In this document: in pieces, positions 4,807-63,139 of the stretch | How positions within the stretch are numbered: the first letter of the stretch is position 1 | Layout of the letters: each line of letters begins with the position of its first letter | From: Phoronis australis | Lineage: Eukaryota > Animalia > Phoronida | Length of the DNA: 64,000 nucleotides | Assembly: GCA_002633005.1 (NCBI GenBank) | Contig: NMRA01000198.1 | Location: forward strand, 256,045-320,044 | Direction: 5' to 3' | Position numbers and translations under genes: made by a program | The notes under the pieces: generated by a model | Told to the model about the DNA's origin: nothing | Seen by the model: only the letters and a program-made list of their open reading frames with translations | Database searches by the model: none

Positions 4807-4893
4807 TCACGATGTAAGTGCTTATAAGTCAACAGGAGAAGCCAACGGTTTTGATATTATTTTCACAAGGATACATGACATTTTTCATCATAA

Positions 4894-28361: not shown

Positions 28362-29265
28362 ACTGTCGATCATTTTCCAAGTTATTATAATTAGTGGTAC
28401 ATGTGAATATGCATAGCCCATCTCCAGAGTTTATGATTGAGTATGGATTTGGTGCGATTGCTGGGCTCATGCGGGGCTCAATGCGGACGATCTATTACTG
28501 TAGCCGCACATTCAACTATACTACAGTAAGCATCGTTTGTATTGATAAGGTTGTGAAGAAGATTGTGATTGAAAAGATAGCGTTTTAACCTCCATTTCTT
28601 GAGAAACTGATGCAGGTTTTGAAGTTCAACCATGCAAAAATTTTGCCTCAATATTCGCCTGAGCGACATGGATACCGAAAGTACACAGTACTGATAGCAA
28701 ATACCTTATGGGGAAGAGACCTTAGATATGGCTCGTGACCAGAACAAGGTTAACTCGGTCGAATTATGTAGCAGTGTGTTATAAGGATGGGCTGGCCTAC
28801 TTACCTTTCGGAGTAAGGTTTGAATTAAATAGCTCCGTTCACACTTAACTGTCAAAAATGCACTTTTGATTTAAACCCTTACCATCATAAAAGTGGTCTC
28901 AGATCATGCCTTTCTCGATTGAAAAGTGATTTCTTGGCTTGCAAATAACTGGCATTTCATTACTGCTTGCAACCATGCTCGTCTGTGAAAAGGACATTAC
29001 CATTTCTATGGCCTAGCTATTTTGGGACACAGTGTGCCACTATCTATGCCTACTCGGAGACGGCGGCTCTGATTTATGCGGGGCTCTAAGCTCTAGCTTA
29101 TTTAGCAGCATTGGTCGAAAATCTGGCGCTGGTCCTAAAGGGAACTTATCGGTGAGAAAAACTAGTTTCAGAGATCTAACCTGAAACCCCGCGGTAGCAG
29201 ATTGACGTTCTACTGGCGGAGGTCAATCCCACTCTATAAAAGTTGCAGAGTTTAAAAGCGGTTAA

Positions 29266-29815
29266 AGGAGAATGCCACCCGATTTAATTAGTCTTTTTTG
29301 CCGTCTTAATCGGTCTATATCCACATTGCCTCGAATACGGTCGACCTTACCTTGCCAAGAGGTGTCGCGTTAACCTGTGAGGAAGGTGAGAAACGACGCT
29401 AGCGACGTCAGTGGTTCATATGCAGATTGCCGCTATATTACGGTGCATCGTTCCCGCTTGTCCGAACTAAGCAGCTGCGAGGAAAGAGGGTATATCGTTT
29501 TTTTTTTTGTACTTCCTGGAGAGTCCCAAATGCTTAGGAAGTGGCTCATGGTAGTGAAGAATGAAATGTACGTTGTAAATAGCAAGCATGAGGCCGTGAA
29601 ACATCTCCGTGTCTGTGGTCTGCAGACGTCGACAGTGCCGGACGAATGCCGGCTTACCAAATAACTCCATACGTTCCGTTGTCTGAGCTTGTTCACGGCG
29701 CCTCTCTAGTATTTCTTCGTCACTGTATTCCTGTTTGAATTGATAGCCTGTGAAACTTAACGATCCACTTGCTAAGTCGGGACTGATGAGCTCTAGCTCC
29801 CAAGTCGGGAATCCA
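29266..29815 (+). mobile_element. Second, 3'-truncated copy of the Kolobok-like element
   Basis: TTAA followed by aggagaatgccacccgatttaattagtc..., collinear with 4894-5445, including the THAP relic and minus-strand GYQFKQEYSDEE. Confidence 0.8.
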
Positions 29816-30693
29816 ATGATGCAAAAACGGGCCACAAAAATGCTTGACGGATATGGCAGCATAGTGGGTATCATCGAGATTCGAGTGTTTTTGTATATTT
29901 CCAAGCGGCCCTGTTGAGCAACCGGATATCTGGTTGCTAATTTCTCATAAAAGTTCGCATTTGGAACTATTCGAATAGCAAAGCTTCAAAGCATGCCACA
30001 GACAAGTTTAAGTGCATTGTAAAACATATGGACTGACTGAGGAGGAATTTGTCGGATTATCCGTGTGTATGCCTATTTGTTGCCTGTTCTATGTAGACAT
30101 TTTCACAGACAATTGTCTGAATGGTAAGAGGGCATATATATTTGTCTGGAGAGAGTTGAGCAAAATGAAATATTTTTGGGACGTACGTGACACGTCACCA
30201 AAATGTATTTTCCTGCTCTGCCATTTTTCCGTGCGTTGATCTTTCTGGGACTATTAATTGTTATTTTACTTATTGCTTTTTTAAAAACTTATTTTGATTT
30301 TCCGTCATTTTCCATAGATTTGAAACAGTTTATAAGTTTTGAAATGTTTGCGGGTTCCTCCCTATGAATTGTTTTTTGCTTTTCAGGCGATGTTTTGAAG
30401 AACTTAAATTATTCGGTCTATCACCTTTTTATGGAAATACTTAGGCCTACGCTGTCACCACGCCATCGTTAATATCAGGAAATTTCAGTTGCACACTCCA
30501 AATTTGCGGGTGTCCAGCTTTTCAAGAAACGATCGGATTTTTAACGGGAACTATTGTGGTTGTTCGTCCCTCTATCCAAGTGTATAAACTAACTATATGT
30601 AAAAAAATCCTTGATTGTCGTATTTGCACTGTTGCATGAGTTCGTGGGTTGTGACTCCGCCTCAGTAGTTTTGATTTTCTTTTATTCTTAGAA

Positions 30694-33331
30694 ATGGACG
30701 GTGGCGAAACCAATATTGTTTTGAAGGATAATTCTGAAGAGGTATCAATGTATTGTGCGAACCAAAGTGTCACACAATCCGACAACCCCAATGGAGAGAG
30801 TTCAGCCAACAACATTTTTCCCAATGCAGAAGATTCGACTAATCCGAGTTCCACCCATGGTCAGGATTCAGTCAACGACGTAAACGAAAACCCCAAAGAA
30901 AGCAGCGCCACCAAACGTTCTTGGAAGACAGGATTAAAAATTGCTCTCATTGGTGCAACGGCAGTTGCAGGTGGCGTCTGCGCAGTTGTGGCCGCTCCGT
31001 TGGTTCTACCTATCGCGGGCGTTGCATCTGGCGCGGCTGCAGTCAGCGGAGGCGTCGCTACAGGTTGGTATATACCAGTGGGCTGACGTTTCCCCCCGTG
31101 AGCGCAGCGGCAATTATGGTGTATTCACTTAAAACCTCTGTTACGGAGATAGTAAAAAATGAACAGTCCAGTGATTGTTATGAGCTGTTCTATTGTTCCA
31201 TGGCCCAAAGGTAGCCTGTGAACACATCATCTTGATGTAAACAGTCAAATTAATCTCTCTCCCTGTTTCTCTCGCTCCCTCATACACAACTGCGGACTCA
31301 TTCGGCACCTAAAAAGATCAACACTGAACAATGTAAGCCCACAGTAATACATAGCATATCAAATTCACAGTATAAACTATTGCACGTGACTTGAGAAAAT
31401 GCAGTTCTCAAGGTCACCAAAAATGGCGGAAGTGGCCGCACCCAATTAATGAGGCTTGCATTGCAAAACACGACATGACGACTGCTGGCAAATAAAAGGC
31501 AGCTAACAAGTGTCAAAATTACAGCATATTCATATTTAGCAGCTCAGTTACAATATAGATAAATACAAGTTGTAAAGTTGTAACTTACATATCATATCCC
31601 AGTAAGCCCACGGCACGTCTGTCCATGTGAAAATATGCGGGCAAAATAACCTAATCAATCTCATTGTAAGAAGAGACGCATTAAGGACACAGCGCCCCAG
31701 CGGCAATTGTTATCACTAAAAACAGTCGGCAAACTTGTCTAACTGAAAATCGTCCATAGTAGCCACTGCAAAACCTTGCTATGGTGTAAAAACAACTCGC
31801 CTACAGGCGTTTTGGCTCCTTTAAAGGAACGTCATCCCGCCCTTATTCTTCGTTGGTACTGAAATCGGTTATGTTAGTATTGCATCGGCGGCTAACTGAG
31901 ATCAAGCCTCCGTGAAAAGCAACAATGAGCCTAGTCTGAAGCTAACAAACTACAAGTTCTTCTCAAGTCTGAAAATCGTTTCTAATCGGAATACAGAACA
32001 AGTTTAGAACGATTACACTGAGGTAAGCCTTAGCTTTAGGAGCTTGAATTAACAGCTGTCTTTTGACAGAAGCTGCGGGTTTCTTGCACCCTAATGGGGT
32101 TATATACTTCTATACTAACTCAAAATTTTGAACTACGTTACCCAATCACCCAAAATGTGTTTCGGTTCTCACTATATTATGATACACAATGAATTCCATC
32201 CACTAACAGGTCATTCAGGAGGTCATCAAGTAAATAGATAACATAGCCATCTGGAAAAGAAATTTTGAAGTTTATTAAAAGATTGATCAAGTCACGATTT
32301 TCTTGTTTTGGTCGTAAGTATGGAGGAAATGTCCAAATTAATATTTTATTCAATCTAAAATTTTATAGGTCTTCTTCTACAGTCAGCTGCAGTTGCTGGC
32401 TCGGCTGCAGGTTTAAGCGCAGCGGCAACTGCCGGGGTCGCTGGCGCCGGGAGCCTTATTGGCGTTGGAGTCGGAGCTGGGGTGGCTCATGCAATTCACA
32501 AACATCACGAGAAGACTGAAAAACAGCAAGACCGTAAGGATCTACGCATTGTATTATTTGTTCTTGCTTACTTGTGGTTAGCTCGTTACATGTATCATAA
32601 CTTTGTGATTGGTTTAAATGAGCAAACAGTGGTCATGAGGGCATTCAAATATTTACAGAAATCATTTTCATTGCTCTTGTTTTATTTTACTTACCTTGAT
32701 CCTTGACATTTTGTAAATGCAATTTATTTAATGAAATTACAATCATAATACTGTATGACAGCGAATCAAAAATAATTTATTCTTCATTTTTATGGGAATT
32801 TCGTCGCTTTTTACGTGTCAGTGATAAACTCAAAGTCACAGACAATGCACATATTGCGCCATTTTCGAGTTTTCAAGTTTGCCTAACCTCTATACATTTT
32901 GAAGAGTTTCTTGAGTTGCTGATTGCTTCGGTGTTCGTGTTGGCAACAAAAATAGAATCCCATGTTGTTAGAGTGACAGGCCTAAGCTTTAGTCAGCTAT
33001 ACAGGGTGAAAGGCGTGGGAAGTGCGATTTTATCGCCCTATCACTTTCCATAGGTAGATGTGCATTCTTACTACGCATATGTGAGAAAGTGTTTGGTGTC
33101 GTCTTAAGAAAGCTTCAAAAATTGATGCGTTTCATGTATGTCTATTTTACAGAACGACCACCAGCTTCAGGCAGGCGGTGCGTTGTGTGCCTGGATGAAG
33201 ACAAGTGCATCTTATTTCTTCCATGCCGCCATCTTTGTGCTTGCACGAATTGTTCGGAACAGCTGAAACAGTGTCCGATTTGTAAAAGAGATGTCACGGA
33301 ATTGGTTCATAAGGCATACGTGTTTATGTAA
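30694..33331 (+). CDS. Gene A: IFI27/ISG12-like membrane segment fused to a C-terminal C3HC4 RING (putative E3 ubiquitin ligase), 237 aa. Exons 30694-31063, 32369-32533, 33153-33331
   Basis: GT-AG introns, both phase 1; 370+165+179=714 nt, open. Reads ...IALIGATAVAGGVCAVVAAPLVLPIAGVASGAAAVSGGVATG|LLLQSAAVAGSAAGLSAAATAGVAGAGSLIGVGVGAGVAHAIHKHHEKTEKQQDQ|RPPASGRRCVVCLDEDKCILFLPCRHLCACTNCSEQLKQCPICKRDVTELVHKAYVFM*. The RING has the IAP/MUL1/MGRN1-type pattern. Confidence 0.88.
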
Positions 33332-33994
33332 TCAATAACGGCTCTTGGCTTGCATTCTTGCGTTTATAGTCTACGGTAATTAGCGAATTTTCATCAATAT
33401 TCTCTTGGTTGCTTACTTGTTCACTGTGCGACAAGGAATATGTTTTCTTGCTTATTCATTATTCTTAGCCAGGTTGTGTAGGCCCATATAAAGGAATTTT
33501 CTTTAAATTCATCTACATCACCCCGAGAATCCTTACACAGTGTTCTATTCAGGTACCTAGTTGATACCGCTATTATAGGCCTTGCCTTCTTTGTTTCAAT
33601 GTTTTGCGGTCGAGAGGCGAAAAGTCCAATTCACTTATCATTTTACGACACTTGTTGCGCGTTTCTATCGTATTTCCTTGTGTTGCTTATAGACCATTAG
33701 GTATTGCTCTGGCTATGTGGGTAGGCCAGCACCTTAGATATATCATTCAACGTAGGTTTTAAAATATGCAAGATCAGAGCCTGTTTAGTTACAGCGTATT
33801 TCGGTAAGACTTCCCGCCAAGAACTACCATCCATGGAGGCTGTGTGCCGTTGCGACCATTCTGTTGTCTATGGTTGCGATACTTTGGGCCGGCATGTGAT
33901 TCTTTCACATGACTTATCAATGAAGGCTTCCGTGGGGACTGTACGGTTTTTGCACGTCTGGCGCGGGGAACAAAAGGTGGTGAATGTGGACCAG

Positions 33995-34242
33995 GGGCCC
34001 GTTCCAAGAAACTGACTTAAGTTCATTTTTTACTTAAGTCTAAGATTTCTCTTAACTTCCCACCTTTGAAACTTCCACATCAGGTAAATTCATCAAAATT
34101 AAGACAAAACTTACGTCACACACTTAAATCAAGCTTAAAATCTCTTTCTTGAAATGATTTTGAGACAAATTGAACTTTTATTTTAATATTTAGTAAAATT
34201 TAAGAATTGTTTTAGCTAAGTCAGCTTTGTTTGAACGGGCCC
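33995..34242. mobile_element. PIF/Harbinger-type MITE
   Basis: TIRs gggcccgttc...ctgactta / taagtcag...gaacgggccc, with a 3 bp TSD CAG on both sides. Confidence 0.8.
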
Positions 34243-35829
34243 CAGATGTCATTATTTTTTATCTTTAAAAGAACTGTAAAAGTATTCTAGGTTTCTAATC
34301 GTCAACTGAGGCGTCGCTGCAACTTTTCTAAATGTAACCAAACTGTGAACAAATAGGAACATTCGACCTGTTACTACTCACGGCTAAACGAAATCTAGGG
34401 CGCCGTGGTCGGCAGTACAAGTTATCGAAAGAGCCTTTCACTTTTCCCGAAGAAACTCCGAAGACTCTTTAGGGCGCAAAATCACTTCGATGGAAATACA
34501 CGTTTTCAAGGAGTTCTTTCAAAAATTCGTTGTGCGTTTGACAATAATGCCTACCGAAATACCACAACGCTGACGGTTGATTGTGTGGTATTTACCAACA
34601 ATGCTGCACGCCAGTAGGACGCTCACCCGTTTCACTGCTGCAGTGATAGTCATTCTTTTACATCAAAATTGGTTGACATTGTTTCACATTTGCGTAGTCG
34701 GTTGGAATGCTGCCTCATCTGATTGGAGAGCGATATTTCGTTCTTGATCGTAACAGTTCATCTCTAAAATGTGTCAGCAGCCTGAAAGTCCTTACTCAAA
34801 GGATTAATCTAGTTCAAAAACTTAAAAATATATACCAATATATTATGTAACATAATGTAATGTTTACCTCTTTTGTGTTATCAAATTAATAGGCTGTTTG
34901 TAATTCGGCTGAGATCAGAAAAATCATTGACTATGCCATCTATTTCCGTGACCTGAGTTCTGCGTGCTTCAGTTAAGGAACGACTCCTGCCCTTGAAAAC
35001 GTATTGATATCACCAAGAGCATGAAAGCGTTGTTATTTTGTTTGGTTGTAATTTGATTCTCATTTTAGTTCTTTCTTTACAGATTTGATTGTCTATTGTC
35101 CAAATTTTGTCTGCTCTTTACATATGACTAGTGGCATTTAATGCACTCATAAGTTTTAATTTTGAATACGTCTCATCTCCCGCATCCAACATTAATGAGG
35201 TGCCCTGAATTATCGCGAGGGTACGTAAATTTTCAGCAGCAATACCCGTTCTGGTAATAAATTAGAGCAAAAACCTTTCTATATCGGCAAATGTCTTTTA
35301 TTAATCAACATATCGTAAAACTGGTGCAAATTGCCGTGTTACTACAGACAGCCAGCGATAGCGCACTTTGCAACTTGACAGCAAATCAGCCCCGGCTTTA
35401 CTGGCTGTTAAGAATGTAAAGTTGAATAAAATCATCCACAAGCGGTGATTTTTCGACAAAAAAATTTTTTATCTCAAAAAGCGCGCTCCTCTCCTGAATT
35501 GCTATAACGCACACCTGTGCTTGATTTTTGGTCCTCCGACACGACAACCGATGAAGTTTGCAATGTATCACTTCGCTGGGAAAATGATCATTTGCTAAGC
35601 TGACTTTATTTTTTGATAATTAGACAAAACATATTTTGAAAGGAGACAAACATTTACAATTGATACCTCCGTGGTCTAAAAATATAAATTCCGCTGAATT
35701 CCAGTGAACTGTAGTCTATGAACTCAATGTGACGATGGGAAAATATTTCAGTGTAAGGAGCACGGCGCAGTATATTTTTAAATCTCTTGTTCCACACGAA
35801 TTTCAGTTACGGCAAGGCCCGCGGAGCTA

Positions 35830-36766
35830 ATTATTGGGGACAAATAAAACAACAAGAATAATATATATTTTAAGTTGTATTGGGAATTTCAAGGTCACAG
35901 CTCTAGAAATAAATATTTCACACAAGGAACCAGGTGGGTTCCTTAATTACAAGAGATAACACACACATTTCCGATACCCAAAGTGTAATTGAGTATCGGA
36001 TATTAAGTAGCACAGGTTAGCATAGTACCAAATGGGTATATAATACCAAATGGGTATTAAGCGATTGCCTACCAACTGGGTCGAGCAAAACGGCAAATTC
36101 AATAACAAGTACCAAGTGGGTACAAACTGCCAAATGGGCAAATATCATATAAAGTATCAAGTGGGTACACCAAACAGCCGTTCCGGACAAGCTGAGTGAG
36201 CAGACCAGCCGGAGTGATAAAAAGCGATATTGTAAGGAACGTGGTGTTGTGGCTCAGTATGTGCCGAGAGCTGGGTGGAGAGAAGCAAGCTGCAGTAAAT
36301 GATGCTCGAGTACAGGTCGGGTCTTTAGCCAATGATGTCGGTTCTTGCCTGAAGGAACACGCCGCTCCGGGCTTGAAGAAGGTACCAGCAGTGACTGTAA
36401 AAACAACAATAACCAACAGCAGATTTTGTTCGACAAAAGGGAGGGAGCGTGGGAAAGGTTGACTTGAGATTTTGTGGTACCCAGGGTAGGGAGGGTGGGG
36501 AGGTATAAATTATGTAATTAGGAAAACTTACGAATGAATGTACTGTTGCTTGAGGCTGGGCCAACAGGAAGCTGGAGAGAAAGAACAAACAGCGCTACCA
36601 TCGGACTTGGTAGGAACTAACTAGGAGTTGGATATGAAGGATGAAGGGGTGTATAATAGTATTTGCCCAAATAATAGGATTTATGTCAGAGTGCCATAAA
36701 TCTCATTATTGGGGACAAATAAAACAACAAGAATAATATATATTTTAAGTTGTATTGGGAATTTCA
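35830..36766. repeat. ~60 bp direct repeats flanking ~0.8 kb, with a large palindrome at the right end
   Basis: attattggggacaaataaaacaacaagaataatatatattttaagttgtattgggaatttca at ~35830 and ~36706. Hairpin tatttgcccaaataataggatttatg...cataaatctcattattggggacaaata at ~36660-36721. Confidence 0.75.
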
Positions 36767-39700
36767 GGGCCCTGCACCCAGAGTAGCATTATGCAATAAG
36801 CAATTGACATATTTTCGTTTGCCTTGAGACCCGGGATTAAGATCTCACATTTCCAAATAAGGAGAATGGGTGTTGCATGTTGGTATATAACCAATGACGT
36901 GACGAATATTTGAATCGAATACTAAAATACATTAACCTACATGGAGATTCCCAATTTTTACATAGAATCCCTAAACATAACTGCTTGATATGCTGACATA
37001 AATTTAGATGTCATAGAAACACTGTACAAATTTAAATTGCTAACATGGTCCAAGTCACTTTAAAGCGATTATAAACCAGCGCTTCGTCCGAGAAGCGCAT
37101 TTTTGATTTAGACTACTTGTCTTTATGAAATTTGTAATGACTCGGACGAGAAATGATTTCCGGCTTTTCAAAGAATTTATCGTTCATTATTCATTTAGAC
37201 CATGCTCGACGCATCACGTGACAGGGCGTGACCAGTTAACTTGTAGAGCCTGGTCTCGAGCAATGACGTTAATTCTTTCGAAGCTCTTGATATCATCTCC
37301 AATTGGGTTAAGAAACTGTTTGAAATTAATTTCATAAACGTAAGTGATTGAGTCATATAGAAGCCTCAGTAAAACAACTACAATTCTGTTTATAGCTAGA
37401 CTAAACTGGGTAATACTTCTTGTTTTTGCCCGTCCCAGAGTCTAATTTCATAGCGTGTAGACCCGGTTGGGTAAATCTTCGTCTCACGGCCTACTGGAAA
37501 CGGTACACTCTATAACATTGATAATAAATAATGATAAATTACATTAGAGTTTTACAGAATATTGGTGTGTTTGGATTGTCAAAATACGACAACGATCCAG
37601 GGTAATCTCCACTCAAACACAACAACGATCCAAGGCAATCTCCACTCAAATATATGGGAATGGGATGAGCATGTTTATCAACTTCAAAATGGATGATATA
37701 ACGACGTAGAAAGCTCACAATTTCCGACATCGTGCAACTAACGCGGACATAAAAAGTTTGAAGTTGAGCAGTTGGATTCAGGATGAGGTCAAATACACTC
37801 CATTGAAATGATTATATTCCACTGTAACATAACAGAGAGCAATATGTAGGCCTACCCGGTACCTTTCCATTCACGCCTGAACCATTTGTTTACATGGGAA
37901 GTAAAACCAAAGCCCACACACGGATTTCCGTGCGTCTTTCATCATGTTTCCACAGGGACACTTTTCAGTATAGGTGGCGCTGTATCAGAGGGTAGATTCC
38001 AACTAAGAGAACAATGACACTTTCTTCTCGAGGAAACTAGCATTGTCCTACCAATTCAGTACACCAGTGTGAGAATACCATTCTCGCCAGGCCTCGTTCA
38101 ACGCACCGTCCCAAAACCGTCTTGTGACACAAATTTCAGGGATAGGCAGTAAGTATGCTGGAATGTTTTCCTTACAATCCAACTTATTACTGATACATGC
38201 GCCTGTATCTGACGCACCTATAAAATGTGCTATTAGGTGAGGATTCACAGGGATTTCTTAGCTACTGGTAAATTGTATTGTCAAAAGTACATGCCATGTA
38301 CAGTTTTCATCTGAGGATATTGACGTTATGTTTTCTAGTGCGTAGATCACTTTCACAATGCTTCGTAGTTGTCTCAGCCAAACAAGGGAATTTTACAGGC
38401 GTTTTTTTTAGGATATGATTAGTCCGGAGAGTATACTCAAAAAATGTGCTTTTCGGGATGGTTCAAACCAAACATAACCCAGGTTATGTGTTTAGCACAG
38501 CTAAATATAAATTAAATTATTTTAAATACGAGCGTACTAGCAAGGTTGTTGGTTCTCCTGGGATATTCAACTCGATCCTTTTTCCAATAACAACTCTATG
38601 CATAGGGATTAGTTTAAAATTCATACACAAGCCTTCGGTCCCGAACTACGTTTGATTTCGACAACTCAATTATTTGAATTTAGTCTCAAGTAATACCTGG
38701 CGTACTGCCAGTCAGGCTCTGACATTGCTTCTATCCTGCAGGAAGATAACACATGGATCCATTAGGCATTTGTCCGGGGGCCCCATGGACACAGGGGCTA
38801 AGTGCATATCTGTTGTGCCGAGGCCAATATACTGAAACCGAAAGCAATGTCAGGTTGTGAAGACCACGGCCTAGGGCAGCATTCCCCTCTCGACTCGGAG
38901 GTCACTGCCGAAATAGCGCACAAATCAGGGGCTCAGGCTTGCCAGTGTAGGCATAGGGACGCCGATTGTCATTACAGCAAAAAATATCTCACCGCGTAGG
39001 CAGGGCTTCATTAGAAACGGGGCCATTTAAAGAAAGTGAATGTTGTGGCTATCAGAGGTAAAACTAATACTGGTGGCAATATTGGATAGGTGCTGACACG
39101 AATTCATCCGCTTCCTCGGTCCTGATTACGGTTCAGAAATATATCGGCTCTGTCCGCATTCTCAAAACTTTTAGCACCGGGAACATTGAATACGCGAATA
39201 AATGTTGTAAACACTGGTTACCGCCTGAGTGAGACCCCTATGAACGGTCTCGAATTCACTGCACGTTTTGGTCAAAATTCCCCATTTCCGCCTCTCCCAG
39301 TGCGTTTCATCACGCTTTTAGCACGAAGGGGCTGGATCTTACTCGAAAAACTATGAACTGATTTCTGTTCTAGCAATTATTTTCGTTCAAGTTTGTGAGA
39401 TTTTATCGTGGACTTTTTAGATGAGATATAAATATGGGTCATCGATCTTTCAATGGTTCAGCAGATCTATCCAACAGCGTAGTTCACGGAGTATTCAGTG
39501 GCCGTATGCACATTATGAGATAAACATATACATAACATTGCGTGTATTGTTAGTACAGGTGGTCATTTGATACTAGTGTATTGTGCGTTTTACGTGCTTT
39601 CACTCGCCTTCAATTTTGTCCATGGAAGTATGAATGGACGACTTTATGTTCGAAGATCATCGATCAACATACCGTGAAATTTATGTGCTGTACTGTCTAT

Positions 39701-40784
39701 ATCTATGGTCGACAGGTACTCCATGGATTAAACTTCGTTTGTTTGAAGGAATTACTGTTAATACCAAAGTGCGTTACTAAGATTGAAAACAATCTACACT
39801 TTTGATTCGCAAATATGTGGCTCAGTATATTGCATTCCAACACAAAATACGTCCAGTATGTCAGTCGGCGGGTTTTGTGAAATGTTGTCATCATGTTCAA
39901 CGTTGTATACTGTATTTTGAATGTCAGACACTTCTCGTTTATCCCATATGTGTGTGAATACGGCAATGGAATACGCTTTCGAATACGGGAAAGTCAAGCT
40001 AATCTGTAGACGTTGGTTGAGCCGCATTCCATGGTTGGTGTACAGCTAGTTCTTTTGGTAGAGTAAATTTGCGTGTACAACGGAGAATTTGATTGGTCTT
40101 GTTCATTTGGGCATTCGACCCCTCGTTCTTGAAAAACCAGTATTATTGCTCTAAAATCTATAAACTTTCACCAAAGATTTGCCGTTGAAAATTCCAACGC
40201 AAGGAGATTAGGCTGCTATCTTTATTCGGAGTCACCAGAAATAGGCCTTCATAGCGTCCCCCAAAGTGTCGGGAAAATCTAATTCAAATCAAACGAAAAC
40301 ATTTAATTATGAATGCATGCAGTACACTTACACTAAGATCTAAGATATCTACAGGAAATTGCGACCTAATCATCGAGTATATATTATTACTGGCACGATC
40401 GTCTGCTCGCAGCGTTTCTCGACTCTACCTTCTGTCGCAACGAGTCCGTAGCTCAGGTTCCGCGAATCAGCAACCTCACAAAACACCGTTTCCATCGTTA
40501 TTTTCCGGACTTGCTGTGATCGACGGAGGAAATATTTCTATCACTCTTTGCATTCCAGAAGCTGAGCAACGAAAAATAGACCTAGAAAACTGAGAGACTT
40601 ATAGACGCTAACTTAAATCTACACAACAGTCACTGGACAAATGTTTTAAAGTTTCAAAGTCACGGATGGATTGTTTCCGCCGAGCTTTCAATGTTACTGA
40701 AAAGTTCAATGTTTTAACTTGTATTCTTGTCAATTTATTTTGAAATAAAACATTTCTAGTTGTTCAACATCATGACATGACTTA

Positions 40785-40943
40785 CCGTAATCGTTCGGGT
40801 TAACGCCCATGCTCAGTTAACCGCCCATCCCCTACTTTAGGTGGATTTTCGATTTAACCGCCCACTGCTCGGTTAACCGCCCTCCCCCGATTTTTTGGAT
40901 TCGCCAATTTAACCGCCCTGGTCGTTAACCCGAACGATTACGG
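40785..40943. mobile_element. Tc1/mariner (pogo-type) MITE
   Basis: TIRs ccgtaatcgttcgggttaacg / cgttaacccgaacgattacgg, TA TSD, four internal ttaaccgccc repeats. Confidence 0.9.
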
Positions 40944-41127
40944 TAATTGTAGAAAAACTTGTCGCTTAACCGGATTGGGTATGCTTAGCATGTATACGAC
41001 GTCTTACAACAACAAGTCAAGATATCGTGACGTATATATAGGTTACCCCACATACATAAGAATACTATTGCCAATTTTATCGATATCTCGAATTCGTTTT
41101 ATCTGAGAATGTCCCAACGAGACGGAC

Positions 41128-41283
41128 AGGATATGGCAGTAGTATTCCTATGCATGTAGGATATGGCAGTAGTATTCCTATGCATGTAGGATATGGCAGT
41201 AGTATTCCTATGCATGTAGGATATGGCAGTAGTATTCCTATGCATGTAGGATATGGCAGTAGTATTCCTATGCATGTAGGATA
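41128..41283. repeat. Perfect 30 bp tandem repeat x5
   Basis: Unit aggatatggcagtagtattcctatgcatgt. Confidence 0.95.
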
Positions 41284-43049
41284 ACCTACATTTCTCGATC
41301 TCCTTCTCACATATTGATATATCAAAAACAGTTCAAACAGGTCGGTCTCCCTTCTCGATATTTTTGCCAGTCGCCGGGCAGGGGGGGGAGAGAAAAGCGG
41401 AAAGATGTTACAAATCTTCCAATAACACTAAAATCTGCTTAAAATCAAACATGTTAGATTTCAATGAGTAACTGCAAATTCAGCGCATTTGTTTACCCAA
41501 GGTAGTATGGCATGTCTCAAACTTATTTTGCTCTGAGCCCCCCGGACTGAAGTTTCCCCCCCGGATACAGTGACACCATTTATGTTGAACTTGTGGGAGC
41601 ATGTAGGTACAGGATTTGTATATTATTTACACAGGATTTGGTGTATGCTGCCGGTCCCGGGCTGGAGTTTAGGGGGTCGTAGTTGAAATTTAAAGGTGCG
41701 TGTCATGGAATCTTTTCCGCCTCTTGTTATCTACAATGTGGATTTCTTGTTTTACAGATTACGGTAATCGCATGCATTGAGTGTATGAAATTTATGTACA
41801 GGAGAGAGCGAAAATAGCTACAGATTGCTATGAGGTGTGTAATTCCCATGACAATCAGCATTTCACGACAACACCTCACATAGTTGCCAACATTTTAAGA
41901 AGAAAACGGGACACCTGGATTGAAAAAGAGGGACATCCGAATAAAAAGCGGGACAGCTGCGTCTATGCCAAGAACGCAAGGTGGAAATGCCCGCCGCAAC
42001 ACAGACAGTGTTTTTCTTTTTAATTTTTGTGGGACATTCGGCTAATACGCATCTTATTACACTCTTGCATGTTAACCTATCCTTGTTCGCCAGCATCTCT
42101 GAATCCGAACTATGGAATAACAGCTCGTTCCTGAATAGTCACGTGACTGCCAATCTTGGAAGTGTTACCACGTTGACTTTCAAGTCAAACTTAGTGATTT
42201 TTAAACTATATTGCATATGGACGAAGTCTACTATTCAAACGACACACTAAACGCCATGTGTAAAGGTGCTGGCGTGGGCCCCTGTGAGTGACAATACGCT
42301 GGCCTCTCATTGTCTATTCTTGTGCGCCGACGGCGCTCTGGATTTGTCCTGGTTCCTAAAATGCAGCTTAGTTAGCCTTTCAGAAAACCGGGCGCTGGTC
42401 TAAGACATTTTAAAGAAACAACGTGTGGGAAGTTGTTAGCTGTGTCAAAACGAAAGATAAAAACGGAGAGGTTGTCCCAACGTTGTCGGTTAGTTTCGCT
42501 TCACTGCGCGAAAGAGTTGGGCAAAATGAAATATTCTGGAATCATGACATGTCACGAAAATATTATTTTGCTACTGAGTCATTTTCTTTGTGTGTTGGTC
42601 TGTCGTTTATTTGCCATTTTACTTATTGGTTCAAAAAAGTAAAATCCGACTGTTTCCGTCACATTTCAGTGATCTAAAATAGGTAAAACTGCAATAAACC
42701 GTACCAGCTAATTTTACCTATCTTATAGGACGTCCTTTCGTCTTCCCGGCACTGTTTCCAATAAATAAACTTGTTTACAAAACACGATTTTATTATTTTT
42801 ACGGACCTACTTACACGGTCCCATGCATTCGCTAATATCGGAACATTTCAATTGTACACCCCAAGTACACGAGGGTCTAGTTTTCCAAGAACGATTATCA
42901 TTTAACGGAACTTATTTTGGTGGTTCATTACTCTATCCAATACAAACTACTTTTGTGCAAAAATTGTTCACATTTTTGCCTGACTTTCTAGGGCAAAGAC
43001 TCTGCGGACATTTTGATATTAACCTTTTATTGCACTAGGTTCTTAGGAA

Positions 43050-46000
43050 ATGGACGTCGACGAAACTAATGTTGCGCTGAAGAACACTTTGGAAGAGGTG
43101 TCAGCGCATTGTGCAAACGAAAGTGATACAACACCCATCATTACATCCGAAAGCCACAACTCTGATGAAGAGAGTTCTGTCGACAACGATTTTACACATG
43201 CTGACAATTCTGCCAGTTCGACCTCCATCCATGGTCAGGATTCAGTCAATGACGTAAACGAACTCCCCAAAGAAAGCAGCGCCACCACACGTCCTTGGAT
43301 GACAGGATTAAAAGTTGCTGTCGTAAGTGCAACGGCGGTTGCAGGCGGCGTCTGTGCAGTACTGGCGGCTCCGTTGGTTTTACCTGGTGCGGCTGCAGCG
43401 TGCGGTGGGGCAGTCGCCACAGGTGAGTATAGGTCTGAAGACAACTGGGTTATTTCCGTGAGGAAAATCGCAATCATCATGTTTTCTTAAAGCTGCAATT
43501 CGCTCAGTTTTGCTGGCTAACAAACAAGCAAAGATCGAATAAGGCCTTTCACTCTCATAAAATCGATCTCGTAATATTCCTTACCGTGACTGGATTCAAT
43601 TTCTGTTACCAACTCAAATCAGTTTTAGGACTGAAAACGGAGAATATTCATGGTTGGTAGAGGCTTCATGACGTTATTGGCTTTGATCAGAGCTATAAAA
43701 TTTACTACCTCCCTCATTCCCCTTCCGACCTCGTTTTTCTCCAAATCGGCGGGAACGACTTCCACTCCACCTCCATATCGACCCCTCCTTTCTGGCCTCA
43801 CACCTCGTCACCTTCTCCCGTTTTCTATTAGTCGCTTGCAACGTCCGGCGCGTCGTTGTGGGTCAAGCGTTTCACGGTTCCAGGCTCCACTCCTTCAACT
43901 CCCTCCTTGCCAAAGAGTCTCACATTTGTTTCTGGACTCAAAGGGGCGGTTTCTGGGTTAACCCCAACCACCTCTACCGCCGGGACGGAGATCACTTCAA
44001 CAGCTTTAGCCTCCACAAACGTGCGTGTGGCCATGGGCCACCACCTCCGCCAACTGTAAACAAGTGTTTGTCTGCGAACGCGCTGTTTTCATGAAGTCAC
44101 TTTTTTGTCTTGTTCAAGTATCAAAAAAACAGCAAGCTGTTTTGCTCCTTCAAAGCAACGTCGTCATGTCCTTATCCTTCGTTGGAATAGAAATCAGTAC
44201 AATACGACACATGAAATAAAACAATGCGTATAATAAAACACATAAAATTCTAATTTCGGCTGATGTCAGTACTGCTTCGGTAGCTGTAACTAACCCGCTG
44301 TGACAAGCTACATAATGATTTGGGTCTGAGGCAATAATTAATCTCGTCAGAGCACGGAAAGTGATGAGAGCAACTATATCATGGTACAGGGGCATAGAAA
44401 TTAACTGTTCAGTTATTTTTTGTCAGAATGCCTGGGTTTAATGCACAATTGTAGACTGAACTGTTTACTTCTTGCTCACTTACAAAAGCGAAAATTATAA
44501 GCTACGTAACTCAATCCCCTCAAATGTGTTTAGAAAGAACCTTTCTGTATCATAAAAATGATTTCCAGCCACTGTCAGATTACTCAGGATATCGACAATT
44601 AAAATGCGATAGAATTAACAGGCGTGTAAGTTTTGAATGCATTATGTTAGAGTTGACCAAGGAAATATTCTACTTAATAAGTGATCAAACCGATTTTTAG
44701 GTATTTTTCTGGATGCAGCGACAACTGCCGGGGTGGCAGGCGCCGGCGGCCTTATAGGCGCTGGGGTCGGAGCCGGCGTGGCTCACGCAATACACAGACA
44801 GCACGAGAGGGTTGGGCAACGACAAGACGGTAAGAACCTATAACAGCTTATTATTTAAAATGACTTATTCTTATTAAAATGACATAGGCAAGAAATTGAA
44901 TTTCAGGCCTCAAAAGCGAGGCCCCTATGTTAATATAGGAGGCCCGCCGAAAGGCGGCTGGAGAGCGGTGAAATAATATAGTATATTATTTCACCGTGCA
45001 TTTTCTGAGCTAACTTATACTTATCTCAATTGAATGTATGTTACTCTTCAAGCTGTGGCATAATGCAAATCAAAAATAAACCAATTTCTGGACTTACTTT
45101 ATATAAATGATAACGTACGAGCGTCCCCATCTCGAAGACTTCTATGATTGTCTAAAAGCTAAGTGTCGGGGTGTCGGCATTGGCGGAGATTGTTGTCACG
45201 TGGTTGTGACTTAATTTCTGTGGTTCGTGATGTAATACATTATTTACTAAGAAAGAAAGGAATTCGGTAGCAACAAAGTGGTTTTAAAACGTTGTAGGTA
45301 CACAGATTGGGCGTTCCATAAGGCTAAGGAATAAAAACATTGGGATCAGAGCCAGGACAAGACGGACCCCCAAGGTTCTCTTGACTACCTCATATATCCC
45401 TGGAATTTCGGACCGTGTGAAAAAAAACATCTCCACCAACACGGGGTTACCACAGGATCCAAACCAATTAAATCTCTTAGGAGCAAATTATTTAATGTAA
45501 AATGTTCCAATGGTGTATTTGGGATAAAGTGTGGGAACGAAGAATGTCCAGAGTGCAATGTTGGAGAAAAGGAAGCAGGCGCTTAAAGTAGGATTTATCA
45601 ACACTGTCGCCCTAACTATGGAGATAACTATGACTCAGCAGTGTTTAGTCACATTTGGGCATCAGAATATGATTTTTCTATGGAAAATGTGTTGATCCTT
45701 AATTGATACTGAAGATGATTGGTTTTCACGTGGTGTAAGAAAGACGATTCACGAGAGAATTGAGTCCCCAGCCTCAACAGACACGAAGGACTGAGACATA
45801 ATCTATCAGCTGTTTGGAATAATGTATCACATCACCAACCAAAGAAATTATGTCACAACCCAAGTGACAACAATCTCCGCCAATGCCTATACGCCACCAC
45901 TTCGTCTTCAGACGATCTGCTAAAGTCTGGGGACGTTACATTATCACATACACAAAGTAAGTCTAGAAATTGACTTATTTTTGATTTGCATTATGCTTAT

Positions 46001-46200
46001 CTCGTTATATAAGTATCTTCATATAACGGAAATCATTGATCCTTGACATTTTGTGTATGTGCGCTGTATTAAATGGAATTACTTTGTTATTGGGTGTAGA
46101 CCTTTGGATCTCTGCTGTATGCATACATATGCATATGCATATATATGCAGTGTGCATATGCATGTTTATATGAATGCATATGCATGCATATGCAGTATGC

Positions 46201-46282
<82 letters not shown>

Positions 46283-47665
46283 ACTGTTCATTGACACTTC
46301 ATTTATAGAGGCATTTCGCCACTCTCTAGCTTTCGGATTTGCAAACATTGCCACGCTCATCCGATGGTCAATCCTTGTCGAATGAGCCGGGGTTTGCCAA
46401 AAACCAATAAAGTCTGGAAGTCTCGATGTTCTTGTGGACAAAGACCACAATTCGAGTAGTTGATTTTGACGCTAAATCACTGATCTAGGTCAATAAAGCC
46501 TTTGTTTGCACCCTGCCCTAAGACACCTAAAAAAGACATAAATTACAGAAAGCACACTCGATGGTGGTTCTCAAAGATGAAGAAATCCACGTCTTTTGTA
46601 CCTTGCTACGTCCACCGGAAAATAATTGTGGTGCCAAAAATGACCATAAATGCATATTTGGCCTTTTGGTACCTAAAATCCCAAATTTACTACTGCCCCG
46701 GTGCAAAGGACAACTTGAGAAAAGAATACATACGTTCTTGCACTCTAAATTCCATAAATTTATATTAAAATATGACATTACCAACCAGACTTTTGCCAAT
46801 TTCCACATGTCTGAAGAGTACCTGTATTCATGCCAAAAATTCCCCACTGAACAAAACTGCTTTGAAAATGCTGGGACTTCCGTATCCTGCAGAGGTCAGA
46901 TTTACTCAAAACAACTTTAAGAAACTATTGAATACCATTCGTGTTAATTACATCCCTAGTCCACAAAAATTGCGGTCCAACCTGACCCACTACATTTTCT
47001 TCATATTCGAGGAGAGCTCCAAAGGCCCGAACAGTTGCCTTAGACCTGTTGATAACAAAGGCCCGAACCGTGACCTTACACATGTTGGTAACGGAAATAT
47101 AATCCTGGAGCATGGGCGGCGCACCATAGGGGGCTGACTGTTGGGTGGCTGGGGGCGCTTTAGCACCCCACTTTTTTCAGTGCACCGCCGCCCATGGTCT
47201 ATGGGCGGTGCACCACAAGGGGGCTAGGGGGGGCTATAGCCCCCCCCCCCCACTTTTTTCAGTGCTGCGCCGTCCATGTAGAGGACAGTTAAACAGTGGG
47301 GAATGCAGCTATGAAAACGTGACAAGTCTACTCATTACCAAGGCCATTGTATCGCGGAATCACTTTCCGTGAATAGATCTGTGTTCTCATACTGCAGATG
47401 TTAGAAGATATCGGATATCTTCGCGAGAAAGCCTCAAGAATCAATGTGATTCGTGTATGCCCATTTTACAGGACAACCACCAGCACCCTCAAGCGACAAC
47501 CAAGGCAGGCTGTGCGTTGTGTGCCATGAGAAAGACAAGGGCGTCTTATTTCTTCCATGCCGCCATATTTGTGCTTGCACGAATTGCTCGAATCAGCTGA
47601 CACAGTGTCCGATTTGTAACACAAATATTACGGAATTAGACCTCAAGGCAAACAAGCTTTTGTAG
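43050..47665 (+). CDS. Gene B: paralog of gene A (eroded IFI27-like segment plus C3HC4 RING), 231 aa. Exons 43050-43422, 44701-44829, 47472-47665
   Basis: Phase-1 GT-AG introns; 373+129+194=696 nt, open. Reads ...VAVVSATAVAGGVCAVLAAPLVLPGAAAACGGAVATG|IFLDAATTAGVAGAGGLIGAGVGAGVAHAIHRQHERVGQRQDG|QPPAPSSDNQGRLCVVCHEKDKGVLFLPCRHICACTNCSNQLTQCPICNTNITELDLKANKLL*. Flanking intron sequence also aligns with gene A. Confidence 0.88.
45058..45996 (+). mobile_element. Penelope-like element fragment (GIY-YIG endonuclease relic) with inverted pLTR, in a gene B intron
   Basis: Degenerate YIPGISDRVK...GVFGIKCGNEECPECNVGE...DSAVFSHI...WFSRGV...GLRHNLSAVWN at ~45390-45820. Inverted repeat arms at ~45058-45245 and ~45818-45996. 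Confidence 0.75.
46118..46280. repeat. Compound microsatellite (ATGC-like, TA, CA)
   Basis: Directly visible. Confidence 0.95.
47111..47278. mobile_element. Two adjacent ~80 bp hAT-like mini-elements
   Basis: catgggcggcgcac...gtgcaccgccgcccatg at 47111-47196 and a similar copy at ~47200-47278. Confidence 0.6.
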
Positions 47666-50200
47666 TCAGAGCCATCATATTCCACTTATAACAGTAATGG
47701 ATCTTCACTTCATACGATAATTTGCATTTATTTCGAAATTGCGAATTTTCACCAACATTCTGGTTGTAGCTTAGGCTTGTTTAGTGTGTGTCATAAAATG
47801 TTGATTCACGCTGTTCCTTGCTTTTTATTGTTCTTAAGAGCTATAGTCGTCTTTTTAAAAAAAACTTCAATTAGAATACCGCAACCTACAAAATTTATTT
47901 TTTTTAATCTTTTGAATTACCACAACTTAAAACAGCATTATATTTCATGATATGACATGTGTTTTGTTCATCAATGGCCGTTTCAGCTAATTCCAGCAAC
48001 CTGTTTAGGAGCTGGATTGTGCTCCCTTAGGGCGCAACTTGTAGCCGCACTCAACTCGAGTGCGGTTCTGGCCACGCGCTACAAAAATGTTCAAGCCATG
48101 GAAATCGAACGCAACGACCAATGTAGCGCTAGCACAGGGCCAGCTTACCGCACAGGATGCGACAGTTATTGCGCGCCGATTACTGAGATTCCCTTATGTC
48201 TGAGTTCTACGCGGCTTTACGGAAATATGAGCAAATTACGGAAAGAGGGACCAGACAAAAATATTCTCAGGGATCTTTTTCGGAAAAGAATAGACGGTTA
48301 TAGGGAAAGTGCAAAGAAAAACGTTAGGGCAACCGCTTGCACCTCACTGAAATGTCGTTTTTCTTGCATAAGCTGTTTTGTGAAAAGGGATATCACAAAA
48401 CTTGCTTGTATTTTACGTATCATTCAAATGTGCCACGTGAAACACTGAGGCATCCCGTGCCACAGCGCGCAAGTGCATAATTCTGGAGTTACATGGCACA
48501 AAACTACGCAAGGGGCAACAAAAATTGGTTCAACAGAATTGAAAAAACTTTGAAACTGATGTTTCTTGTCACATTGAGACATACATGTAATTTTGATTGC
48601 TTCGATATGAACAAGCGGAAACCAAAGTAGGCCTACTCTTATTACAAGGATGGCAATGGGTCCGCTGTAACGAGTTCATACTGTAATGACAAGCTGCATT
48701 AATAGTAAACCCAAAGGACCCGTTTATAGGCCTTCCTAAAGCAAAAAAACAAGATTTTTTCTCAGCAAATTTAACAAGTATTTTACTCATTTGCGATGAA
48801 ATATGGGATGAAGCGAGTGCGTACGCCCATGATCAGCGCTCTTTCGGAATTTTTTAGAAAATGCGCCTAGTGGCGGCCATTTTTCTAAGTCGATACGCTA
48901 GTGAGATTCCGAGCTTAGTCTCGACACACTTAGCCTATCGCTTGCGTTGGTGTTGCGAGATTTCGCTTTTATTGCAAGAAATTGGCTCCACGGAACACAA
49001 CCTGCTTGAATCCCTTTGGAATCGTTTTCCTATGCATTCTCGCCCATATCCCTGTAAGATGCCTTTGTGCATTTACAATTCATCATTTACTTCTTCGCTG
49101 AAGTGTGTCGTATTACCCGGTTCACATGCTGGCTAAAACGCTAGCGCTTTCGCTAGCATTTTCGCTTGCAGCAAAAACGCCAGTTATGTGTACGGTCACA
49201 GGCGTCACGTTTGCTGGCGCTTTGATGGAGGTTTGAGTTACCCCAAAACTACCAAAACTACTGGCGTATTCGCTAGCACTTTTGTAGCCAGACCGCTTAC
49301 TTCAAAGGACTCACATGTGCGCAGGGGTAAGAGACCATTTTTTCAATCGTTACGTCAACGAATTTATGGCAGAAATTTCGTTGAAAGTTTGTCAGAATCT
49401 TGCTGATTATTTGGCTGACACACCGTGACGTCACAAATATCTACAAGTATAAAGAGATCATTGAATGCTTTGTCCAGTAATAGCAAACATCAGTTTTTAA
49501 TGTCGACCGACCTCAGGCTGTCGGAATAGCACAAATTGGCTATTTTTCGTTTACCGCCTCACAGCAATGTCACAAAACCGATCACGCTGTGTTATAAGTG
49601 AAAGTAAATACATACATACTTTTTCATAGAACCTAAAGATCTCTAAGCTTTCATTTTGAATTTACTTGATACCTTTTAACAGCAAAAAGTTTGTTTATCT
49701 TTCATGATATTGGCTAGAACATGTGAATCTTCAAGTCAAAGACATGACAGATGAATTTCAGAATTTTCGTTTTACTTATAATGTAGGCCTATATTTGGAA
49801 ATTTAATTACAAGAATGTCTACGAACCGCAGCTATTTTCTTTGTCTTGCCAATAGTGAGCAAATAATTGAATTTTTTTATTTTACAAGACAATAAAGCAT
49901 GTTATTTTAAGGCTCCTAAACCCGGATATTTAAACACTTTTCCATACTGCACTCTGAAATAAAATAATGCTCTGGTGCACATCAACCTTCAAAAGTTAAA
50001 AAGAAGATTTTAAGAACCCCTTAATTACTAAATATCTTCAACAGGCAAGCGTGAACAACCCTTTAGGTCATTTACACGATAGGGGACAGAACACGATTAG
50101 TTGAAATTTCCAAAACAGGGTTTAATATCATTTTAATTATATTCCGAATACATTAAGACATAAAGTTTTTATCAGGTGAGTAAATTTGATATAACTTGCA

Positions 50201-54452: not shown

Positions 54453-54718
54453 TAGAAAATAACTCGCAAGTATTTCTTTACTGTTCATTGATGACAGCAA
54501 ACTACGAATGATCGTAACCTGAAAGAACAGAGACAGGGGGTAAATACTAGGTCGCTGATAAGTGACGTGTGATTATAATAGGTAAACAATGCTACAGATG
54601 TGCTAAGGCTACAATATATGAGAGAATCTTACCGCTAATTAAACAATGGACTTAGAGACAAAAGGAACATGGCGGCTAGGGCGAATAGCAAGCGCCATCT
54701 ATATGTCATAATTCTCTA
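54453..54718. mobile_element. Small DNA element with TAG termini and 3 bp TSD (Academ-like), nested in the LINE
   Basis: cta|tagaaaataa...taattctcta|cta. Excision rejoins EDWQ to LDEQKY of the RT. Confidence 0.6.
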
Positions 54719-55703
54719 CTAGATGAACAAAAATACACTGCAGCAGTCCTCATAGATCTTTCTAAAGCTTTCGACTGCCTCCCTCACTCCCTTCTAATCT
54801 CCAAACTTGAAGCTTACAAATTTGATGACAATACCATAGCCCTTCTTAGGAATTATCTTTCCAACAGAAAACGAGTAAGACTAGGCCAACACTCTAGTGA
54901 ATGGGGCCAAGGTATACACGGGAGTACCTCAAGGATTCATCCTGGGTCCCCTTCTCTTCAATTTGTTCATCAATGACATCTTCTTTTTCGTGAAAAAATC
55001 TACACAGGTCAACCATACAGATGACAACACCTTCTCTTTCTCTGACAACAGCCTACTCTGTAACTGAAAATTTATGACAGGACAGCGAATCACTCAACTG
55101 ATTCGCTGTGATGCATTTTTACATCCGCAAAAAGAGAGTTAGTGGAATTGTATAGGGGAAAAATCTGTATAGTCATGTATACTGTGTTATTAATTGTAAT
55201 AGGCCAAGTGAACAAAAATTGTGTACTTTTGTAAAAAGACATTCTTCCTGATAAAACTTAAATACATTATGTACAGTAAAAATCCTTTAATTTGGACAGT
55301 ATATAATGTTCTAAAATTTGAAATAGGCAATATTGTCTGTAATAAATTTATGATATAAGATAAACAACGAACAATCATTCATACTGATGTTAACGCTATG
55401 TGGCCGCAAAGAAATGTTGCGTTGGGGACTGTTTTTGACAATTTTATGAGTTGCCGAATCTATTTTTGATGCACAGCGTAGTGTCAGATGTTTTGAGAAA
55501 TATTACGAACACCAAAATCATCCATGTACCAATCTATGGAATCAAGTAAGTACAATTTCAGCTTAATTTTTGGTGTCCTAAATTTTTGGAACTACCAAAA
55601 TTGGAGAATGTTTACCGTAATAAAGTATCATGTATGCGCATGTCAAGGCTATTGCTCTTGTAATTTAAGTTACTGTACCATTGCTATTTGCAGGTTGTGT
55701 AGT

Positions 55704-62000: not shown

Positions 62001-63139
62001 GGCAATTGGAGAACTGGATGCGAGGTATGTTCACCAGTTTGTAATGGTGTTAGAGGCTGGATGCAAGACAAAAAATAGACTGGTTTTTTGACTGGACAAT
62101 AGATGGAGTTACAAGCTGGTCCATTTGAGTACTATTAACGGTTTCACTCAAAAGACATTCCACATTATGTGCAAGACTTCTTGTCTCAAAAATAAGAAAA
62201 TTTTGTTAATTTTTGTCTTCCATGTTTGTAAATAATGAATAATTCAATGGACACTACCGAGGTTGCCCCATTTCATTCAGTTTGATGTCTGGTACTACTC
62301 TTGTCATTTTAATTTTAGAAATATCATTATAACTGTTTCGTATATCAAGTTGAGTTGTCTTATATCAGTAATTACTGATAGATCTCACACAAGATAACCA
62401 ATTCTCCCATTCCAATTTAGTTTGATCACTCGCTGGGCTCATTACACAAATTCACATTCAGTTCCAGCTCTGGGACTAGGTATATCACTCTAGTCCATTG
62501 TTAGTGTTGTGTTTCAACTCACCGTACAATTACCTACCATGTTTCAATGGGGGTTAATAAAACCATTGATCAACAAGTACCAGAGAACCAAAACCTAATG
62601 CATCTATTTTGGCTAATATCGTATTTATTTGGGTAAAAATGATCCTAACTCAACTTTGGAATCCTTGGTGTATCAGTTTATTTTAGCCAGTGTTTTATTA
62701 TGGTAAACCCATCACTCATGCGGTACTTGGGCTACTCCATGCAATAGCACCTTAGATCAGATTCCCTGAGAAACGGGCCTCTTGACGACAGTGGGGCTTG
62801 TACACATGTACTGACAAAGTACATAAAGTACAAGATGCCCACCAATTGTAACTACTCTAGCTCAGTAACACAAGTCTGAGACATCTTGTTTATTTAAATA
62901 AATATGAAAAAGAAGTGAAATTTTGATCTTTAATGCAATATGTCATTAGTAAAGTTGTATGTATTTTAATGAGAAATGCAATACATGTACTTGTTTTGCA
63001 AGTGTCCATTTTATGAATATAACTAGTAATCTTCAATGAATCTACACAGTATTTAAAGAATGGTTTACTTGAGTGACATACAATTGAAACAGAATATTTT
63101 GGGAGTTATTTGCTTGTCATAGGGTGTGGGGTCAGTGCA
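59044..63139. repeat. ~1.9 kb duplication (59044-60983 vs 61225-63139), each copy starting right after an N gap (58899-59043, 61065-61224)
   Basis: Initial offset is 2181 bp. The copies look identical up to 59767/61948, then show scattered SNPs and indels. A 21 bp unit repeats ~5 times at 60963-61064. Confidence 0.9.

Follow-up and report, generated by a model that had tools for sequence, protein, structure and literature searches.

Probable fusion of an IFI27-derived hydrophobic block to a C-terminal RING domain in two neighboring genes of Phoronis australis

A 64,000-nucleotide stretch of DNA from the phoronid Phoronis australis (contig NMRA01000198.1, positions 256,045 to 320,044 of the forward strand; hereafter the window, numbered from its first letter) contains two paralogous genes, A and B, each encoding an acidic N-terminus, then a Gly/Ala-rich hydrophobic block, then a complete C3HC4 RING domain. 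Gene A appears to be a real, transcribed chimeric gene, and its product is most likely a membrane-anchored RING ubiquitin ligase (E3). On the reading we favor, to which we give a probability of roughly 0.55, both genes combine a block descended from the IFI27/ISG12 family with a RING of the IAP/MUL1 type, and A would be a membrane-tethered E3 that re-uses an IFI27 anchor. The two genes lie in a cluster with a canonical IFI27 gene (D) and a further RING gene (C), in the order D, A, B, C along the chromosome and all on the + strand.

The action of IFI27 and IFI6 is still poorly understood; reports link these proteins with membranes, apoptosis, and degradation through a separate E3. That IFI27 works with the E3 SKP2 against viral and host proteins, a link that the initial annotation of this DNA had pointed out, is described in passages of two reports (PMC12646010; bioRxiv 10.1101/693333).

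Gene Structure and Transcription of A and B

The coding exons of A (30694–31063, 32369–32533, and 33153–33331) splice to an open frame of 237 amino acids, and those of B (43050–43422, 44701–44829, and 47472–47665) to one of 231. All eight splice positions named beforehand in the initial annotation fall on GT/AG boundaries, and all four introns are in phase 1. Over 220 aligned codons the two proteins share 65% identity. Exon 1 of A encodes the Ser/Thr/Asn-rich N-terminus (residues 1–76) and, from about 30940, the first half of the IFI27-like segment, ending in phase 1 within a Gly codon. Exon 2 (phase 1-1) supplies the rest of that segment, to about 32493, and a charged linker; exon 3 carries the RING (Cys188–Cys222, 33179–33283) and the stop codon. 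Exon 1 of B has 80% DNA identity to its counterpart with a net in-frame indel, exon 2 is shorter than that of A by 12 codons, and exon 3 encodes a complete RING (Cys182–Cys216, 47513–47617). The N-terminus has 13 Asp and Glu versus 4 Lys and Arg in A (76 residues) and 18 versus 3 in B (82 residues). In both proteins the hydrophobic block is continuous over 65–85 residues, and Gly and Ala make up about 48% of it. The proposal of two open spliced frames with this three-part architecture is thus borne out.

Four sequencing runs were aligned to positions 29500–48500: three raw RNA runs, which were chosen by species label, bear no treatment labels, and were each used to 18–19 in 100, and one contig run. 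The GT..AG junction 32533/33153 was crossed by 13, 5, and 3 reads in the respective RNA runs and by one contig of the contig run, so exon 2 of A, with its hydrophobic sequence, is joined to the RING exon in transcripts. Reads on A match the strand expected of a + transcript in all three runs, with depths of 23, 8, and 8 over exon 1 (at 30885). Of the differences listed for the contig run, the two that fall in exons are both synonymous. Same-strand reads continue into a probable 3′ untranslated region at 33332–35200, whose far limit is approximate; depth is 9.6, 8.3, and 4.7 at 33304–33937 and 3.6, 3.3, and 2.3 at 34572–35205, and AATAAA motifs lie at 35256 and 35425. The contig match begins at 30692 and is preceded by 50 other letters, from which we infer an exon upstream. 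This exon is probably untranslated, since the nearest acceptors ahead of the ATG of B, as read from the sequence, lead to a different phase or to a stop in frame.

The other three junctions put forward for checking (31063/32369 in A, 43422/44701 and 44829/47472 in B) are neither shown nor excluded, as they are not among the joints listed (15 of 43, mostly in repeats). Gene B has little RNA: two runs cover its exon-1 bin at a depth of about 1, the third has a depth of 0 there, and the bins of its other exons are shared with repeats. Its second intron contains a short, GC-rich, self-similar repeat (47100–47280) with many related copies in RNA. The description of B as intact is based on its open frame and on selection rather than on transcripts. 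Of the claim of two intact paralogs, then, the open frames hold, whereas equal function is not supported: B has little RNA cover, and, as described below, it has no basic residue after its last zinc ligand.

Searches for relatives of whole exons gave little. None of 1956 candidates matched exon 1 of A at E ≤ 0.01 and none was returned for its RING exon, in searches that covered longer proteins only and needed shared words and are hence weak; no relative of exon 2 was confirmed among 600 stretches of prokaryote genomes. In the ESM Atlas, residues 70–123 of A gave a top score of 0.83 and P0027 (a relative described below) gave no usable match; both results are uninformative.

The RING Domains and Gene C

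The last exons match Pfam zf-C3HC4_3 (PF13920) at 2.5e-15 for A (56.5 bits) and 5.4e-15 for B (55.4 bits), with a cutoff of 27 bits. Both RINGs have all eight zinc ligands, spaced 2-11-1-3-2-6-2, and belong to the PF13920 subtype. Their nearest solved structures in the PDB are cIAP2, cIAP1, XIAP, MUL1, and CGRRF1; the A RING is identical to that of cIAP2 at 18 of 43 residues. An AlphaFold model of the A RING exon (3 rows) had a predicted local distance difference test score (pLDDT) of 47 and was not used. As in cIAP1/2 and XIAP, the RING comes last in the protein and is followed by just a short tail. In contrast to the IAP family, the six exons of A and B that were scanned contain no BIR domain, and a membrane block takes its place. 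With MUL1/MAPL and CGRRF1 the genes share both the RING subtype and the layout, in which a membrane block precedes a RING at the C-terminus. A passage of PMC10702803 gives MUL1 two transmembrane domains and a C-terminal RING that faces the cytosol. A and B are not its orthologs: they lack the 40-kDa intermembrane-space domain that MUL1 has between its helices, their anchor would be IFI27-derived, and Pfam searches per exon found no likeness to MUL1/MAPL beyond the RING.

Gene C (55704–58638, +; exons 55704–55815, 56738–56782, 57622–57675, and 58475–58638) is a predicted open GT-AG model of 124 amino acids, with one Gly/Ala-rich hydrophobic helix and an IAP/MUL1-type RING (PF13920, 6.3e-13). 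The RING exons of C and A share 50% identity, or 56% over 41 residues, and that of C is entered in phase 1, as in A and B. Gene C is thus a candidate relative or donor of their RING exon. The helix of C was also considered as the source of the hydrophobic block in A and was rejected; it matches neither D nor exon 1 of A. A reverse transcriptase fragment (54689–54973, +; RVT_1, 1.7e-6) lies just upstream of the gene.

The Hydrophobic Block Very Probably Descends from IFI27

Gene D (968–4806, +) has coding exons at 968–1123 and 4658–4806 that match Pfam Ifi-6-16 at 6e-17 and 2e-4, respectively. Because the first located exon begins in phase 1, D must have a further coding exon upstream; a candidate near 499–545 was seen by eye only. 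A profile of the IFI27 family was built from the 60 proteins matched in a search with the D exon, and hhalign was used to compare it with the blocks of A and B. Together these reached 96.7% (score 57), which none of 150 column shuffles equaled (maximum 23). Singly, A reached 96.5% (score 55) and B 89.1% (score 36), as against 16 and 20 for the reversed sequences and at most 22 for 57 decoys. The decoys were Gly/Ala-rich hydrophobic windows of phage proteins, an imperfect set because many are related and their Gly/Ala content is 0.36–0.44 rather than 0.48. With a second template A still gave 93.9%. The block of A also beat 2000 of 2000 shuffles without bias correction and 1999 with it in HMMER; that of B beat all of its 2000 shuffles except 13 without correction and 129 with it.

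The match is specific to individual exons. Exons 1 of A and B match exon 1 of D, and their exons 2 match exon 2 of D, with only 10, 19, 10, and 16 of 3000 shuffles scoring as high; the four crossed pairs, and gene C against the D exons, are at chance level. Among 2218 six-frame pieces of the window, the A exons rank third and fourth after those of D, ranks that are not significant singly, and the B exons are not listed at E ≤ 5. Likeness to D at the DNA level is significant for neither first exon (27 of 300 shuffles as high for A, 19 for B); for the second exons, 0 and 4 of 300 shuffles score as high. The phase-1 intron splits a Gly codon after GGGVAA in D and, as the first intron, after GGVAT in A and B. 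On the profile alignment this is the same Gly, as the initial annotation had proposed.

Several results weigh against this reading. No single exon of A or B matches Ifi-6-16 in Pfam at E ≤ 1. With bias-corrected HMMER and our own 60-sequence profile, the whole proteins score −2.8 bits (A) and −5.1 bits (B), compared with 93.5 for D, and 5 and 11 of the 57 decoys do as well as A and B, respectively. Neither gene exceeds the 29.1 bits of PF06140, whether single exons or, on our own profile, whole proteins are scored. Without bias correction B scores 21.3, less than its own reverse (23.2), and with the second hhalign template it reaches just 43.4% over 17 columns. D is only the 13th best of 61 pairwise matches, and trees of the IFI27 segment give no supported joining of A and B to D. 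A single clade of A, B, and D was neither found nor rejected (approximately unbiased test, p = 0.29; 21 of 63 rows used).

These negative scores are what would be seen if the block were an ordinary Gly/Ala-rich transmembrane region of a membrane RING protein like C, and had come to resemble IFI27 by composition. Gene C offers a local template of helix plus RING for such a protein. The shared intron is also less telling than it seems: phase-1 introns within Gly codons are common, and when A and D are simply aligned pairwise to the optimum, the gap left by the deletion described below can fall elsewhere, and the intron match is lost. Nonetheless, reversing or shuffling the sequences, which preserves their composition, greatly lowers the hhalign score, crossed exon pairs give no signal, and the helix of C, the protein on which this account is modeled, fails to match D or exon 1 of A. 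We therefore regard convergence as very improbable. The alignments, the exon-specific matches, and the intron together suggest that the block very probably descends from the IFI27/ISG12 family; D itself may be the source gene, a point on which the trees do not decide. Of the profile comparisons that had been proposed, zf-C3HC4_3 was thus matched outright, whereas on the IFI27 side A matched our own family profiles in hhalign (94–97%) and scored nothing significant in HMMER. The claimed homology to IFI27 stands as family descent and falls as an intact family domain.

Loss of the IFI27 Core and Selection on the Block

Nine invariant columns, and 20 near-invariant ones scored by the consensus letter, were taken from a 44-row alignment of the family. 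D keeps 9 of 9 and 19 of 20. A keeps 2 of the invariant positions, with 5 deleted, and 8 of the near-invariant ones, with 8 deleted. A thus lacks the invariant ISG12 core and, by score or by core motif, A and B are not members of the IFI27 family as judged from their sequences. The deletion in A removes about 15 residues. In the AlphaFold model of P0027, which has four helices (121–145, 150–169, 174–189, and 192–221) and a pLDDT of 44–75 per ten-residue block, it corresponds to residues 151–165, most of helix 2. B lacks another 5 and 12 residues that A still has. To judge from this model and the alignment, helices 1 and 4 appear to be retained while the middle shrinks. Compared with IFI27/IFI6/ISG12 (PF06140; solved example 2LOQ), A and B have the same motifs in the first and last helix, the same placing of Pro and Gly, and the same Gly/Ala make-up, as well as the intron position seen in D; they differ in the missing core, the acidic N-terminus of 76–82 residues, the C-terminal RING, and a score below the family cutoff.

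What remains of the block is under constraint. Between A and B the ratio of nonsynonymous to synonymous change (dN/dS) is 0.24 in the block (bootstrap 0.11–0.47), the most constrained part, as compared with 0.50 in the N-terminus and 0.49 (0.32–0.69) overall. Net indels per exon are −3, +36, and −15 bases, all in frame; flanking noncoding matches carry frameshifting gaps. Neither frame has acquired a stop over a divergence of about 0.4 synonymous changes per site.

The initial annotation had inferred a hard-wired adaptor and ligase, a one-chain version of IFI27-SKP2 in which the IFI27-like part would recognize IFI27 partners or viral proteins and pass them to the fused RING. The descent of the block, the purifying selection that falls most strongly on it, the cluster shared with D, and the IFI27-SKP2 reports are all in keeping with this idea. 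So is the independent pairing of a RING with an intact Ifi-6-16 domain in crab proteins (see below), as is a shrimp IFI6-16 antiviral gene that is inducible by poly(I:C) and virus, according to passages of PMC9144789. However, a working IFI27 adaptor is not supported by a segment with 13 of these conserved positions deleted in A and more lost in B. Moreover, no motif of the interferon regulatory factor type occurs within 6 kb upstream of the coding start of A, as judged by a simple pattern with the true promoter not located; the scan for immune promoter motifs gave scattered matches and nothing more. We consider the adaptor reading rather doubtful.

Is the RING Likely to Be Active?

Selection on the RING exon differs from that on the block. 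Its dN/dS is 1.12 (0.51–3.33), with no purifying signal, a value that derives from just 5.5 synonymous differences. Directly behind the last zinc ligand, A has Lys and B has Asn, whereas C, cIAP1, and cIAP2 have Arg; at the tail position of the XIAP Phe, read off the alignment, A and C have an aromatic residue and B, whose tail is free of aromatic residues, has Leu. The residue after the last ligand and the tail aromatic have roles in catalysis or activation of the ubiquitin-loaded conjugating enzyme (E2) and in dimer formation. Along with the sparse RNA of B, these features would fit proteins that are weak or non-catalytic and that serve IFI27 or IAP-type RING ligases as decoys or dominant-negative partners; B would then be on its way to becoming a pseudogene. 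Against this, the eight ligands and the hydrophobic pattern for E2 contact are intact in both proteins, XIAP itself has Tyr after its last ligand in the alignment, and both frames have stayed open over the divergence given above. We judge this reading of both proteins to be improbable; B by itself is likely a copy that is weaker, seldom expressed, or diverging.

A Model for Origin and Function

In the model of a membrane-tethered E3, a gene of the IFI27 family would have read through a phase-1 intron into a RING exon akin to the one in C. An IFI27-type gene that gained a C-type last exon by local duplication offers, we infer, the simplest history. Duplication of the fused gene would then have given A and B, and the IFI27 core would have shrunk by about 15 residues, a loss that takes out most of helix 2 of the four predicted. 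A and B would thereby present a clean case of a new gene assembled from parts adjoining in one cluster. A repeat found just after D (4891–5435) and just before A (29263–29810), the copies being 83% identical, could mark a duplication breakpoint. It matches nothing in Pfam and resembles a decayed piece of a THAP-type transposon.

Both termini are predicted to be cytosolic, because there is no signal peptide and basic residues flank the hydrophobic block on both sides (in A, Lys74, Arg75, Lys78, and Lys82 before it and Lys168, Lys172, and Lys175 after it, with no charge within). The acidic, disordered N-terminus and the RING would then share the cytosolic face, and the remaining helices would anchor the protein as a hairpin in the membrane of an organelle, either the mitochondrial outer membrane or the endoplasmic reticulum. 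The RING would bind ubiquitin-loaded E2 and tag proteins in or at that membrane, much as MUL1/MAPL does. The IFI27 part would most likely serve as an anchor and location signal instead of an intact IFI27 effector. By descent only, innate-immune or cell-death proteins would be the likeliest substrates. The model fits less well with a rough hydrophobicity scale, which gives three weak stretches in the block and not two, with the dN/dS of the RING exon, and with the absence of junction 31063/32369 from the listed joints. If the anchor has lost IFI27 function, A would be a membrane E3 specific to its lineage, and its general interest would be modest.

A Probably Independent Pairing of RING and IFI27 Domains in Crabs

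The initial annotation had left open whether this architecture is new. A RING and an Ifi-6-16 domain in one chain already exist in RefSeq: the pairing occurs in 3 of the 60 proteins matched by the D exon, namely XP_063882627.1 and XP_063882632.1 of the crab Scylla paramamosain (P0024 and P0056) and the unnamed P0027 (a nine-member cluster). All three are uncharacterized, and the two crab proteins are neighbors by locus number on one scaffold. In all three the RING comes first and is of the TRIM type, with spacing 2-16-1-2-2-12-2, and the Ifi-6-16 domain is intact (72–81 bits); the best Foldseek matches of this RING are TRIM32, TRIM2, TRIM23, and TRIM25. By eye, the middle part of the crab pair resembles proteins whose UniRef names mention a SAM domain, and Pfam lists no SAM there. 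A and B likewise pair a RING with an IFI27-family domain in one chain but have the opposite order and another RING subtype, and so are not of the crab type. Since order, RING subtype, and intactness of the domain all differ, the crab fusion is likely independent and the pairing likely arose at least twice.

The order seen in A and B occurs in none of the 60 proteins, in a search that covered 7994 scored candidates and would overlook a domain as eroded as the one in A. Neither order is described in the literature searched, a body that leaves most subscription journals outside its coverage. In passages of PMC8917759, IFI27 occurs only as an abbreviation. A tuna protein, XP_044186121.1 (P0053), combines major-vault domains with Ifi-6-16; it is a single member and may be an annotation merge.

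A transcribed IFI27-RING fusion and an independent crab fusion in reverse order would constitute evolutionary evidence for a real and recurrent link between IFI27 and ubiquitin, and such a fusion would be a ready substrate-trapping tool. One may speculate further that the IFI27 domain has long served to target ubiquitin ligases to membranes and was fused to a RING at least twice independently, giving an undescribed class of one-chain antiviral membrane E3s of which vertebrate IFI27 with SKP2 would be the split form. We hold this to be conceivable, on the unlikely side; if true, the mechanism of IFI27 would become directly testable through the substrates tagged by the fusions.

Other Features of the Window

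Between A and B, an element at 35827–36769 is bounded by 68-bp direct repeats (97%) and has very high RNA cover that comes from diverged copies on the opposite strand. Its open reading frame has no Pfam match. In this element 34, 26, and 3 reads jump back 875 bases, from 36767 to 35893, which points to a small repeat element present as tandem copies or as circles. A duplication of about 1.9 kb (94%) at 59044–63142 lies between two N gaps and is possibly a two-allele assembly artifact. Finally, an inverted repeat pair (79%) spans 45058–45996, and a stretch within it resembles, by eye, the end of a Penelope-type retroelement.

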